A program made the position numbers and the translations under genes. This document shows, in pieces, positions 9,630 to 13,579 of a stretch of 35,365 bases of DNA. The stretch is from a virus. Under the pieces are notes generated by a model. The model saw only the letters and a program-made list of their open reading frames with translations. It did not search any database and was not told the DNA's origin. The stretch is taken from the UHGV virus genome UHGV-2010328. One strand, given 5' to 3'. Numbering within the stretch: the first letter of the stretch is position 1; each line of letters starts with the position of its first letter.

Positions 9630-10490
9630 ACGATAAACAAGGCTTCTGGTGCATTGCAGAAAAACCAGAACGGTGCGGATATTCCAGGGAAAGATACTTT
9701 CACAAAAAATATTGGTGCAGCGAAAGCGGCCAGCGAAAGTATCAATATTGGAGGAGATAGCAGCAACTGGACGACAGCACAGTTTATTGCGTGGCTGGAG
9801 TCTCAGGGGGCATTTAATCACCCATACTGGATGTGCAAAGGTTCATGGTCTTACGCCAATAATAAAATTATTACAGATACAGGTTGCGGGAATATTCAAC
9901 TTGCTGGCTCGGTGGTTGAAGTTATGGGCACCAAGGGCGCAATGACTATTCGCGTCACTACTCCAACAACTGCAACAAACGGTACAGCAAAAGCGCAATT
10001 TACTTATATTAATCATGGTGACACCTACGCGCCTGGCTGGCGTCGCGACTGGAATCGTGCTGGCGATACCATGACTGGGGAACTGATAATCACATCACAG
10101 AATGCTTTAAGGATGATTGCAGGAAATTATGGTGCAATTCTGCGACAGGATGGTGGCAGCTTGTATCTGTTATTTACTGCCAGTGGTGACCAGTACGGTA
10201 GCTGGAATGGTCTTCGTCCATTCTATATCGCACTTAATACTGGCCTTGTTACCATGGGGCACGGTCTGAATGTTAACGGGCAGGTTGTCCCATCCAATTA
10301 CATTAATTTTGACTCGCGCTATATACGAGATATTCGTCTGGGTACGCGTGTTGTTCAGACCATGCAAAAAGGCGTGATGTATGAAAAATCAGGCCATGTA
10401 ATTACGGGGCTTGGCATTGTTGGTGAAGTTGATGGCGATGATCCGGCTGTTCAGGCCAATACAAAAATACATCAATGGCACATGGTATAA
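9612..10490 (+). CDS. promoterless alternative tail-fibre C-terminal variable segment (Sv'-type), expressed only after inversion
   Basis: Frame opens inside gix site 1 with no ATG (TTG at 9621). Ends ...[38 protein letters not shown]..., shared with the C-terminus of H. Followed by its own assembly gene. Confidence 0.7.
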   Translation, partial: [292 protein letters not shown]

Positions 10491-10509
10491 CATTGCACAG
10501 GTATAAATC

Positions 10510-11037
10510 ATGCAGCATTTAAAAAACATCAATTCAGGAAACCCAAAAACTAAAGAGCAATATCAGCTAACAAAGAATTTTGATGTTATCTGGTTGTGGT
10601 CAGAAGAAGGAAAAAACTGGTACGAGGAATTAAAAAACTTCCAGGAAGACACAATAAAAATTCTTTATGACGAGAATAATATTATTGTCGCCATCACCAA
10701 AGATGCCTCCACGCTTAACCCTGAAGGTTATAGCGTCGTTGAAGTTCCTGATATTACAGCTAATCGTCGTGCCGATGATTCAGGGAATTGGATGTTTAAG
10801 GACGGAGCTGTAGTTAAGCGGATTTATACGGCAGACGAACAGCAACAACAGGCCAAATCGCAAAAGGCCGCGTTACTTTCCGAAGCTGAATCAGTTATCC
10901 AGCCACTGGAACGAGCTGTCAGGCTGAACATGGCGACGGATGCGGAACGCGCCCGACTGGAGTCATGGGAACGCTACAGCGTTCTGGTCAGTCGTGTGGA
11001 TACAACAAAGCCAGAATGGCCACAAAAGCCTGAGTAA
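10510..11037 (+). CDS. tail fibre assembly protein (gpG / Mu U-like), partner of the alternative fibre tip
   Basis: 175 aa, [41 protein letters not shown].... N-terminal ~100 aa about 80% identical to the convergent paralogue at 11066-11599. Confidence 0.8.
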
Positions 11038-11042
11038 AAATT

Positions 11043-11062
11043 AAGGCCCGATATCGGGCCTT
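11043..11062. terminator. bidirectional hairpin between the convergent tail-fibre assembly genes
   Basis: Perfect palindrome ggcccgatatcgggcc flanked by A/T-rich sequence. Confidence 0.6.
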
Positions 11063-11065
11063 CTC

Positions 11066-11599
11066 TCATTCTGGTTGTTCGGGAAACGTTACTGGCAGGC
11101 TGGAAGTGTCTGTCGATTCGACTTTCTGCGCATAGTGCATCCACTCGGTTAATTTTTGTTTATTCTCATCGGAAATGATGCCCAGCCGTAGCTGTGAGTC
11201 CCATAGCTGGGTTTTATCCCTGACGAGCTGTAGCAGGCTTTGCTTTTCATTTTCTGCTTGTTGCCTCTGCTCTTCCTCGGTATAAGTTCGCTTTATCACC
11301 ACGCCATCTTTGAACATCCAGTTGCCCGAAATATCAGCCCGGCGGTTTGCTGTAATATCAGGCAACTCAACGACACTTAAACCTTCTGGATTAATTGCCG
11401 ATACATCCTTATCCATAGCAACAATTATTCCCTCGACTGTGTAAGCTAGCTTTATTGTATCTTCCTGGAAGTTTTTTAATTCCTCGTACCAGTTTTTTCC
11501 TTCTTCTGACCACAACCAGATAACATCAAAATTCTTTGTTAGCTGATATTGCTCAACGGTCTTTGGATTACCTGCGACAATGTTCTTTAAATGCTGCAT
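11066..11599 (-). CDS. G: tail fibre assembly protein (gpG-like), partner of the currently expressed H tip
   Basis: 177 aa, [41 protein letters not shown].... Immediately downstream of H on the same strand. Confidence 0.8.
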
Positions 11600-11602
11600 A
11601 AA

Positions 11603-13579
11603 TTACACCTGCGATACGTTATACCATGTTCCGTTAATTAACTTTTGTATTGGTCTGAANNNNNNNNNNNNNNNNNNNNNTTCACCAACAATGCCAAGCC
11701 CCGTAATTACATGGCCTGATTTTTCATACATCACGCCTTTTTGCATGGTCTGAACAACACGTGTTCCTAGGCGAATATCTCGTACATAGCGAGAATCTGA
11801 TTCAGCTTTGGTATATGCACCAATATCTCCTGCTGATGGTTTGTGAGCGGTTGTATATAGTTGCGCCCATCCAGACCAATTAGCATCTGCTGTATCTCGT
11901 CGGGAACGAATATATGCCGGAGCATGGCCGCCGCTGGTCCCACTCCACCCAATAAATAACTCTCCTTCGCCAACTGCCGCTACGCCAGTAAGATGAAGAA
12001 CGTTACCATAAGTAAAAGGATATCCATTGTTGTACGCTTCATACATTTGGATACCTGGCGTACCCTTTGCGCTCCCACTTAATGCTGTAACACGGTTTCG
12101 GGATACTAACGTATTAATATTTATATCGCTGGAACCATCAAATTTAACGCCATTAATATTTCTTGCTGTTTTTAGCTTTGTTGCAGTAGCGGCATTGCCG
12201 GACAACTCCCCAGAAAGGCCACCGCTGAATGTTTGTCGATTGGTCCAAGTATTCGCTGTACTGAGTAACGGTATTTTTTCCCCGCTTGTGCCGAGTTCTC
12301 GTAAACCGAGGTATTCGATAACGGCGGCAACGGTCGATTTCGCAAGAATATCCCGCCCGACTTTTGTCAGAGTTGCCAGGCTGGCGACATCATTCCCCGT
12401 AAAATACGGAAACCTGTCTGCCGCAGTAGCAAGCCCCGCCAGCGCCGTCAGAGTGGCATCTTTCGGTTGCTTACCTGCAAGCGCGTTAGTCATGGTGGTC
12501 GCAAAATTCGGGTCGTTGCCCAGCGCCGCCGCTAACTCGTTCAGCGTATTCAGTGCGTCAGGCGACGAGTCTACAAGTGCGGCAATCGCGGCCATCACAT
12601 AAGCCGTGCTTGCGATCTGAGTATTATTAGTACCTTTTGGCGCAGTTGGCGTTGTTGGCGTTCCGGTCAGCGAAGGACTGTTTAAGGGCGCTTTCTTGTT
12701 CGTTTCATCCATTACCGCCTTAACAGCTTTTGGCGTCGCAGCCAGCGTTTCAGATGTGCTGTTAGTGGCGCTACTGAGCTGAACTATCCCTTTTCGTGCC
12801 GTCGTTGCGTCCTGAGCGGTATATTTTGCGTTAGCAAGGTCATATGCAGCCTTTACCGCCTTTGGCGTTGCCGCCAGCGTCTCAGAATCGCTGTTGGTGG
12901 CGCTACTGAGCTGAACTATCCCTTTCCGCGCAGTGGTAGCGTCCTGTGCGGTGTATTTGCTATTAGCCAGGTCATATGCCGCCTTAACAGCCTTTGGGGT
13001 TGCCGCAAGCGTTTCTGACGTGCTATTGGTGGCGCTGCTAAGTTGAACAAAACCTTTTGCGGTCAGCGAGGCGTCCGGGTGACGTCGTGACTGTTCATGC
13101 TCTTTCAGTTTGTCATCCACGTAATCCACTGTGGCCATCACCATGGTGTTATCCACGGTAAGCGCCACGGTGGCAGTGCTGGATACGGTCAGAATGGTGC
13201 GAAATGTTTGTGCACGTCCGGACCCTTCGGCAACGGCTGGCTTGTAACTTTCGGCAGTATTGCCTACCGCAATCAAATCGCCGTGCTCATCAAACACACC
13301 AATTTCCCGGATCCAGAATCCGCCCGTTTCAGGAGGAATAACCAGCTCCGCAATAATGCGGTTCTGATGTGTTGCGTCCAGGATGACGCGATTAACAGTA
13401 TGTCGCCACACCTCATGCACCAGACGGGTCTGCTTACTGTCTGGTGTGGGCAACGTGCCGTCACCCACGGCCATATGAGTCAGGCGGACAGGCTTACCAT
13501 CTGGCGCGGCTGCCTGAGCTAATTTTTTTGCACCCGTATTGGTGATAACGGTTTTAAATTTTCGTGTTGTGGTACTCAT
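11603..13579 (-). CDS. H: tail fibre protein H (constant N-terminal part 13579..12322; invertible variable part 12321..11603)
   Basis: 658-codon ORF from ATG 13579..13577, with three tandem fibre repeats and gix site 2 inside the coding sequence (..VIEYLGLRE..). The C-terminal 18 codons lie beyond a 21-nt N run, so their frame and the true stop are uncertain. Confidence 0.85.
   Translation of the reverse strand: [658 protein letters not shown]
11660..11680. other. run of 21 N (assembly gap or masked bases) inside H
   Basis: Directly abuts the 81-bp perfect inverted repeat at 11681-11761. Confidence 0.95.
12296..12321. other. gix/hix-like 26-bp inversion crossover site (site 2), inside H
   Basis: ttctcgtaaaccgaggtattcgataa; 20 of 26 positions identical to the inverted site 1, with the same central GA dinucleotide. 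Encodes IEYLGLRE of H in frame. Confidence 0.75.
12713..13075 (-). repeat. three tandem 132-bp (44-aa) repeats within H (tail-fibre repeat motif)
   Basis: The string gctactgagctgaac recurs at 12770 and 12902, with a diverged copy near 13034. Protein repeats KG(F/I)[39 protein letters not shown], twice plus one partial. Confidence 0.8.

Follow-up and report, generated by a model that had tools for sequence, protein, structure and literature searches.

We report here that the tail-fibre region of the virus genome UHGV-2010328, studied over a stretch of 35,365 nt (the window), is by its genes and recombination sites an invertible tail-fibre cassette of the Mu G-segment type at about positions 9604-12321, and that the long inverted repeat inside it would represent two tail-to-tail copies of one junction module, a Mu-S-type fibre C-terminal domain followed by the first 50 codons of the tail fibre assembly (Tfa) gene. 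The copies would be inverted because a Gin/Pin-type invertible segment contains two alternative "tip plus chaperone" cassettes in convergent orientation. The repeat itself would not be part of the invertase switch but would reflect common descent, both of the fibre end and of the chaperone domain docking there, with gene conversion keeping two blocks (A and B) identical between the arms. The run of 21 Ns in the right arm would be a small assembly gap standing for 24 nt that encode VDGDDPAV. We put the probability of this reading as a whole, with module repeat, inversion, conversion, small gap and an irregularity in the silent copy, at about 0.85.

Genome context and relatives

From nucleotide identity and gene order, the window is assigned as the genome of a P88-like phage (Xuanwuvirus, Peduoviridae, P2 family). 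In a nucleotide comparison that used only the first 25 kb as query, phages P88, 520873, 503458 and P884B11 matched at ~95-96% identity over 75-87% of window positions 1-25000, P88, 503458 and 520873 at about 95% over 82-87% of them, and across the same positions identity and synteny with the type members place the phage in Xuanwuvirus. P88, 503458 and 520873 share with the window the order tape measure, gpU-like protein, invertase, silent tip, tfa, tfa, H, I, J. The window's tips are different alleles from those of these three phages and, unlike the window, each of the three has two tips of unlike end types, one S-like and one S'-like, which is why their internal repeats reach only ~40-220 nt at 70-80% identity, whereas that of the window extends over ~350 bp at 89%. 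A further relative, here L019, is an E. coli prophage locus on contig DAYGUK010000004.1 (GCA_043159925.1) that was found via the protein route. The features discussed below are listed in Table 1.

Table 1. Features of the tail-fibre region, in window coordinates
Feature	Position	Strand	Basis
Serine DNA invertase (Gin/Pin/Cin type)	8962-9567	-	Pfam Resolvase 4e-50 and HTH_7
Left 26-bp crossover site (gix-like), TTATCTAAAACC-TC-GGTTTGCAGGAA	9604-9629	+	Pattern scan
Alternative (silent) fibre tip as read in the window, frameshifted near its end	9621-10490	+	ORF; orthologue comparison
Left repeat arm: last ~60-64 codons of the alternative fibre, spacer, alternative tfa codons 1-50	10311-10658	+	Repeat search
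2-nt deletion in the silent tip: GCTGTGTTCAG in relatives, GCTGTTCAG here; mirrors the H-side end of the N run	10446-10449	+	L019 alignment
Alternative tail fibre assembly gene, 175 aa, Mu U type body	10510-11037	+	Caudo_TAP PF02413 3e-35
GC-rich hairpin between the convergent assembly genes, near the repeat's symmetry centre	11043-11062	.	Terminator scan; fold -20.3 kcal/mol, z = -2.4
H-serving tail fibre assembly (Tfa chaperone) gene, 177 aa, Mu U' type body	11066-11599	-	Caudo_TAP PF02413 4e-34
Right repeat arm: H residues 595-658, spacer, tfa codons 1-50	11451-11797	-	Repeat search
Tail fibre gene H, expressed orientation; 658 codons as written (659 expected with the gap filled)	11603-13579	-	ORF
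21-N run, H codons 634-640; predicted content 24 nt, GTTGATGGCGATGATCCGGCTGTA (coding strand) = VDGDDPAV	11660-11680	.	Relatives' sequence
Right 26-bp crossover site (gix-like), within the H frame (…IEYLGLRE…)	12296-12321	-	Pattern scan and ORF

Invertible segment

A DNA invertase is annotated in phages 503458 and P88 at the same position as in the window. The longest invertase ORF here begins at TTG 9567; since relatives annotate proteins of 195-199 aa, translation probably starts a few codons further downstream. A pattern scan of the whole window returned the two gix-like sites as its sole matches, against a chance expectation of 0.02. They are inverted with respect to each other, and their alignment with Mu gixL and gixR has 21 invariant columns. 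With up to 3 mismatches allowed, the whole window held no further crossover site beyond these two, and none lay within the internal repeat. A multi-site system of the Min type (p15B Min, shufflons) was rejected on the strength of this count, which corresponds to a simple two-state segment. The right site divides H into a constant part (13579-12322) and a variable tip; the H ORF reads through the site, and the silent ORF runs in frame from the left site (LQETINK…).

The invertase turns the whole segment over at the two sites, so that either tip can be joined to the constant part of H. This is evident from L019, in which the same 2.7-kb segment, at 97% identity, is inverted relative to 98%-identical flanks. 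Its junctions are exact reciprocal recombinants of those in the window, with the outer half-sites swapped at the central TC. L019 has the same pair of tips, the same pair of chaperones and a long internal repeat (350 nt, 91%), but differs from the window in carrying the full 24-nt linker in both arms, without an N run and without the 2-nt deletion, and in having a longer perfect tract (110 nt) with other boundaries.

H contains a Pfam Phage_tail_fib N-terminal domain and Phage_fiber_2 repeats, and shows homology to Mu S and S' over its C-terminal 70-100 residues (8JU3_A, 9e-20; 5YVQ_A, 5e-13). The end motif of Mu S/S', RP(I/V)Q..INGTWYN, lies downstream of the gap in H; the silent copy has it only when read in a shifted frame. 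Tfa matches Mu U (PDB 5YVQ_B) over its full length with E = 4.8e-64; the alternative Tfa is identical to the other at 47 of the first 50 residues and at 102 of 175 overall. Mu Tfa binds the distal fibre through its N-terminal domain, as stated in a passage of PMC9608196 that cites North et al. 2019, and docking of the corresponding domain on the fibre end in this phage may be read across from the Mu S-U structure. The hairpin between the two assembly genes is likely a terminator.

Internal repeat and probable gene conversion

The repeat search found two pairs of arms, 10311-10427 with 11681-11797 (117 nt, 94%) and 10450-10658 with 11451-11659 (209 nt, 87%), which together give 326 comparable positions at 89% identity, far above chance. 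An earlier note on this DNA had described a long inverted repeat at the 3' ends of both fibre modules with homology continuing into both tips and into the 5' ends of the assembly genes, and this description agrees with what was found, the homology covering H residues 595-658 and codons 1-50 of both tfa genes. The 81-bp perfect core that it reported exists (block A) and was correctly placed in the right arm at 11681-11761; its left-arm counterpart is at 10347-10427 rather than 10357-10437, a shift of 10 bp. The N run does begin directly after this core, as the note had it, but lies inside the repeat, between the homology blocks, and not at the outer edge. A second perfect block of 95 bp (block B) pairs 10555-10649 with 11554-11460. 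An RNA or hairpin element was ruled out as a reading of the repeat, which is coding DNA with arms 792 nt apart, and an Rfam scan of the window gave no match. The long repeat was likewise rejected as a general trait of such segments: none was detected in the Mu G segment and that of 503458 is weak, from which it appears that a long repeat requires two tips of like end type.

Differences between the arms number 0 of 81 in block A and 0 of 95 in block B, compared with 27 of 105 in the stretch between them, and the informative sites form two clean tracts (clustering exact p = 9e-9). Against six orthologues, the H arm shows 5 differences in block A, 9-10 in block B and 4 of 105 between the blocks (10 for L005). 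One substitution relative to L019, the 97% relative, is present at the mirrored positions 10355 and 11753, and similar tracts with different boundaries occur in L003 and L019. The mosaic of perfect blocks and a divergent stretch, together with the mirrored substitution, points to gene conversion between the arms, and the earlier note's suggestion that the repeat is a substrate for homologous exchange finds its sequence signs here. These tracts are visible only in a block-wise analysis. Over the full 364-nt module, each arm is 92-94% identical to its orthologue elsewhere versus 87% to the other arm, so that homogenisation would be patchy and not global; simple global concerted evolution of the arms was rejected on these values. 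Part of the mosaicism could stem from recombination with co-resident prophages instead of between the arms of one genome.

The similarity of the arms might instead be due to purifying selection on a conserved protein module alone, without recombination between them. The module is indeed homologous to Mu S/U and kept across many fibres, and 605 of 5426 E. coli genomes have it, but we consider this explanation very improbable, as in the perfect blocks, where the arms are identical, orthologues with nearly the same protein show 3-5 and 4-10 mostly synonymous differences, the boundaries of the conversion tracts are sharp, the substitutions relative to L019 are mirrored, and Mu, P88 and 503458 have no long internal repeat. 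The repeat could also serve as a second switch independent of the invertase, in which a RecA-type crossover would invert 10428-11680 and thereby swap the chaperone bodies between the tips. RecA recombination has a minimal length requirement that both perfect blocks surpass (A with 81 nt, probably 104 nt; B with 95 nt), and relatives join the same tfa 5' end to a 175-aa or a 177-aa body, with the joint inside block B. The window, however, has the orthologous arrangement with no such inversion visible, the patterns are those of short conversion tracts and not of reciprocal inversions, and Gin-type inversion would be much the more frequent event, which makes a second switch quite unlikely.

Probable assembly gap and the two fibre ends

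The N run is the only one in the window. In its place, 24 nt are present in 14 of 14 H-type relatives, in L001-L005 and in both arms of L019, and among the 120 proteins closest to the silent tip, this linker type occurs in 28, invariably with 8 residues and never with 7. Since both lengths, 21 and 24 nt, are divisible by three, the frame of H, its last 18 codons and its stop are expected to be correct as written. Gap closure is predicted to yield 24 nt with the frame intact; the earlier note had looked to exactly 21 nt as the sign of a sound H end, which is the wrong measure because the relatives all carry 24 nt, in the same frame as with 21. Searches with exact-flank patterns for an identical relative spanning the gap found none in IMG/VR, the GTDB representative genomes or the JGI metagenomes, and a relaxed flank pattern matched 13 viral contigs.

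The silent tip as written ends in 12 aberrant residues, while the canonical frame (FRPIQKYINGTWYNIAQV) continues to a stop at 10505-10507, and the silent-tip orthologues P0001 and P0002 (97-98% identity) have the intact end. All relatives have 24 nt at the deletion site, where E. coli matches are 2 nt longer than the query. The deletion was found in none of the relatives examined, including those of 97-98% identity, and for this reason the 22-nt copy is taken as the aberrant one. Its position, mirroring that of the N run, makes an assembly artefact at the repeat edge the likely cause.

The earlier note had correctly observed that the other arm has 22 nt (10428-10449) opposite the 21 Ns of H and had suggested that the last 18 codons and the stop of H may result from the length given to the gap. 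On this reading the true frame would be that of the 22-nt copy. A 22-nt fill would indeed shift the H frame, but such a reading is hardly credible: the 18 residues after the gap are identical to those of orthologues in 14 other sequences, the written frame holds the RPIQ..INGTWYN motif common to Mu S and S', the 12-residue end of the 22-nt copy occurs in 0 of the 120 closest proteins, and 24 nt are found in every relative examined. If instead the Ns mask exactly 21 real bases one for one, H would truly lack one VDGDDPAV codon, a private deletion seen in no relative. In favour of this, the run is short and keeps the frame, masked stretches occur in some collections, and the linker of the other arm is also shortened (22 nt), so that the site is perhaps truly unstable in this phage; yet no 7-residue linker occurs in the 28 proteins of this type or in ~25 DNA copies, and two differing length anomalies at mirrored repeat positions are more simply explained as one assembly problem, leaving masking unlikely. 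That the silent-tip deletion is genuine has somewhat less than even odds. The alternative fibre would then be a fresh pseudogene with its conserved C-terminus destroyed, and virions made after inversion would have defective fibres. The change from GCTGTGTTCAG to GCTGTTCAG is the loss of one GT/TG dinucleotide repeat unit, a plausible slippage, in a silent prophage copy not under selection, and the downstream canonical frame is still fully open, as a recent event predicts. Against this, the deletion is absent from even the most similar relatives and exactly mirrors the N run, at the end of a would-be 104-nt perfect repeat, where assemblers and polishers typically fail; if it is false, the intact reading expected across 10330-10520 is GCTGTGTTCAGG. 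It is decidedly unlikely that the N run and the mirrored deletion are real population heterogeneity arising from ongoing, invertase-independent exchange between the arms (conversion or 10428-11680 inversion), in which case the cassette would vary at a second, slower level, through new pairings of fibre ends and chaperone bodies that the assembler failed to resolve. With a small gap as the preferred reading, the practical use of these results lies in annotation: H is best entered as an intact fibre gene in which 7-8 residues, predicted as VDGDDPAV, are unknown, and the silent alternative tip is best marked, provisionally, as frameshifted.

Comparison with known systems

As judged from its sequence, the locus is known biology and offers no new principle. 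It provides a clean example of two known processes, site-specific inversion and patchy gene conversion between cassettes, the first of which is documented by a natural relative whose segment has the opposite orientation and exactly reciprocal junctions. The conserved 3' end of the fibre gene and 5' end of tfa are joints at which receptor-binding parts and chaperones are swapped, and the loci compared here show these same joints. Tail-fibre mosaicism among P2, P1, Mu, lambda and the p15B Min/Cin regions was reportedly described by Haggard-Ljungquist in 1992 and by Sandmeier in 1992 and 1994. The p15B Min-type shufflon is a multi-site system, whereas the window has two crossover sites only. The Mu G segment (Gin; S/U, S'/U') resembles the window in having a serine invertase adjoining the segment, two 26-bp gix-type sites, one of them in the fibre gene, and convergent cassettes of variable tip and Tfa, with the window's Tfa close to Mu U and its fibre end homologous to S/S'. 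The host phage here is a P2-family myovirus, while Mu is a transposable phage. The tips of Mu end in different C-terminal types (S versus S'), whereas both tips of the window carry the S-type end, which accounts for the repeat of ~350 bp at 89%.

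The window is from a P88-like phage of the genus Xuanwuvirus, Peduoviridae, and shares 95-96% identity with P88, 520873, 503458 and P884B11 over 75-87% of its first 25 kb. Its gene layout is that of P88 and 503458. The longest invertase ORF opens at TTG and carries about six extra residues (MDGRFSV; window 9549-9567) before the LIGYVRVST motif, which normally follows the start in these invertases; the true start is probably internal, since relatives are annotated at 195-199 aa. The two convergent chaperone genes are separated by a GC-rich hairpin (AAGGCCCGATATCGGGCCTT) with a T run after it on the minus strand; the hairpin probably ends the H-tfa transcript. 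In the constant part of the expressed fibre gene, H, the Phage_fiber_2 repeats are encoded by three 132-nt units in tandem, which show 77-84% identity to the reference copy. Relatives' assemblies break or have 100-N gaps in or beside this region: the closest relative segment, L019, begins at the position matching window 12865, and in two further loci (L020 and L021) N runs occur there. The tandem region is a second assembly-prone repeat within H.

Features of the fibre region and its inverted repeat
Feature	Position	Strand	Remarks
Tape measure	5582-8425	+	
gpU-like tail protein	8432-8926	+	
Serine invertase	8962-9567	-	Resolvase and HTH_7 domains
Left gix-type site	9604-9629		
Silent fibre tip	9621-10490	+	
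Repeat pair 1	10311-10427 / 11681-11797		117 nt, 94% identity
Block A (in pair 1)	10347-10427 / 11761-11681		81-bp perfect core
Repeat pair 2	10450-10658 / 11451-11659		209 nt, 87% identity; adjoins pair 1
Block B (in pair 2)	10555-10649 / 11554-11460		second perfect block, 95 bp
Tfa chaperone	10510-11037	+	175 aa
Hairpin	11043-11062		
Second Tfa	11066-11599	-	177 aa
Fibre gene H	11603-13579	-	
N run	11660-11680		21 nt
Right gix-type site	12296-12321		
Tandem 132-nt units	12715-13076	-	inside H
Baseplate genes I, J, W, V	downstream of H	-	

Across the whole window, the gix-type pattern matches only at two sites (chance expectation 0.02), both of which can be aligned to Mu gixL and gixR. H contains the right site, and the silent tip starts in frame from the left one. 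A protein search with the silent tip led to L019, an E. coli contig (GCA_043159925.1, contig DAYGUK010000004.1), whose positions 1-3971, compared with window 8900-12865, contain the 2.7-kb segment (97% identity) in the opposite orientation relative to flanks of 98% and 92% identity. At each L019 junction, the outer half-site from one of the window's sites meets the inner half-site from the other, with exchange at the central TC. These reciprocal junctions are direct proof that the segment flips at the two sites, and L019 is a natural flipped counterpart of the window.

The two cassettes of this segment carry a long internal inverted repeat in two adjoining pairs, separated by 22 nt on the left (10428-10449) and by 21 N on the right. 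Its arms are 89% identical across 326 comparable positions. The window's only N run thus sits inside the repeat, at the edge of its first perfect block. The earlier note's description of an inverted repeat with an 81-bp core is correct save for one coordinate, its left-arm positions being 10 bp too high.

In every relative examined, 24 nt stand in place of the 21 N of H. This length is found in seven S-type copies (fibre ends resembling that of Mu S) from L001-L005; 13 IMG/VR contigs and L003, with the same H-type flanks, all read GTTGATGGCGA(T/C)GATCCGGCAGTA; and L019 has 24 nt in both arms, with GTTGATGGCGATGATCCGGCTGTA on its H side. From these copies the gap is expected to close with 24 nt, reading GTTGATGGCGATGATCCGGCTGTA on the coding strand of H. 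At the protein level, 28 of the 120 sequences nearest to the silent tip have this type of linker; it is eight residues long in each of them, VDGDDPAV or VDGDDEAI, and seven in none. The concern that the last 18 codons of H and its stop were an artefact of gap length proved unfounded, because 21 and 24 nt, each divisible by three, leave the same frame beyond the gap, the 18 residues after it match orthologues exactly, and the RPIQ..INGTWYN motif common to Mu S and S' is present. The sole hidden part, H residues 634-640/641, is predicted to be VDGDDPAV.

That inference had the wrong direction, because the defect sits in the silent copy. Its 22 nt reflect the loss of two bases at 10446-10449 (plus strand), where GCTGTGTTCAG in L019 and L005 is GCTGTTCAG here. 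The deletion shifts the frame of the last 18 codons of the silent fibre and replaces its conserved end; the canonical FRPIQKYINGTWYNIAQV is still open in the next frame as far as a stop at 10505-10507, shortly ahead of where tfa begins. Orthologues at 97-98% identity (P0001 and P0002, proteins close to the silent tip) have the intact end, the aberrant end occurs in none of the 120 closest proteins, and every one of the listed E. coli matches exceeds the query by 2 nt. In the mirrored arm, the site of the deletion corresponds to the H-side end of the N run. If the gap were filled as in L019 and the two bases put back, the first perfect block would grow to 104 nt and end exactly at the deletion. 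Two length anomalies, one per arm at the same repeat edge, would most simply be one assembly or polishing problem, and we consider it fairly probable (roughly 0.6) that the deletion is an artefact. A genuine recent frameshift, in a copy free of selection while silent, is the less favoured but still credible reading. Finding GCTGTGTTCAGG at the silent copy would identify the deletion as an assembly error, and GCTGTTCAGG as a real pseudogenising mutation.

The right arm spans H residues 595-658, a short spacer and Tfa codons 1-50, and its mirror spans the corresponding parts of the silent cassette. Close homology links Tfa to Mu U (5YVQ_B, E = 4.8e-64), and the end of the fibre has its homologues in the C-terminal domains of Mu S' and S (8JU3_A, 9e-20; 5YVQ_A, 5e-13). 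In Mu Tfa, according to the summary of North et al. (2019) in PMC9608196, the N-terminal domain binds the distal fibre end and the C-terminal domain drives trimerisation. The repeat therefore takes in the fibre end plus the first part of the chaperone domain that, by analogy with Mu, would dock there. This module, at ≥80% identity, is present in 605 of 5,426 complete E. coli genomes, and in the loci collected here it is joined to at least five unrelated receptor-binding regions.

In an alignment of 23 copies of the 364-nt module (both window arms included, L019 left out), each window arm is nearer its orthologue (94% and 92%) than the other arm (87%) over the whole module, but this is reversed in blocks A and B. 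The arms do not differ in either block, whereas the H arm differs from six orthologues at 5 positions in A and 9-10 in B; in the 105 nt between, the arms differ at 27 positions and the H arm from the six orthologues at 4 (10 for L005). A mosaic test of the H arm, with the orthologue L003 and the other window arm as 'parents', gave informative sites in the pattern 111111x1-22222-(22 ones)-222222222-11x11111 (clustering probability 9e-9). The window differs from L019 at the mirror positions 10355 and 11753, and therefore by the same change in both arms of one lineage. The base at alignment column 302 is common to both window arms and absent from the 21 other aligned copies; it is also found in both arms of L019, outside that alignment. 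Similar tracts with other boundaries occur in L003 (perfect run of 107 nt) and L019 (110 and 83 nt). We conclude that short gene-conversion tracts probably recur between the arms, which lends indirect support to the suggestion that homologous recombination can act on the repeat. Through a reciprocal crossover, 10428-11680 would be inverted and tips and chaperone bodies re-paired; no such inversion is visible in the window.

Relatives have one and the same tfa 5' end in front of either a 175-aa or a 177-aa body, the two parts meeting inside block B. IMG/VR contigs L006, L007, L009, L011, L012 and L014-L017 have an H-type fibre end and H-type tfa 5' end followed by a 175-aa U-type body (resembling Mu U); unlike these, the window continues into the 177-aa body. 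Two of them have a truncated tfa (L017 13942-14245, 101 aa, ending GGGGGG at the end of the retrieved stretch; L009 3488-3775, 96 aa); these truncations may have no biological meaning and stem from poly-G or assembly artefacts. In E. coli TUM9757 (L004 3720-4442), the H tip's receptor-binding part (window 11800-12290) is found again, joined to the other, S'-type end (CNSRFITG…). The joint falls right at the start of the internal repeat, so the H tip is a chimera there.

A long internal repeat is no general property of such invertible segments: Mu has none and 503458 only 40 nt at 80%, because their two tips differ in end type, S-like versus S'-like. In the window, L019, L003, L005, L010 and L013 both ends are of the S type, which accounts for their long repeat. 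The feature is real and well accounted for by known biology. It is a switch of the Mu G-segment type, carried by a P2-family phage, and its two cassettes happen to share a module of fibre end and chaperone start that gene conversion probably keeps partly identical. The Mu segment likewise flips at such sites (Grundy and Howe 1984, as cited in PMC9881135), and a comparable inversion occurs in P2-like prophages of E. coli (PMC4272514).
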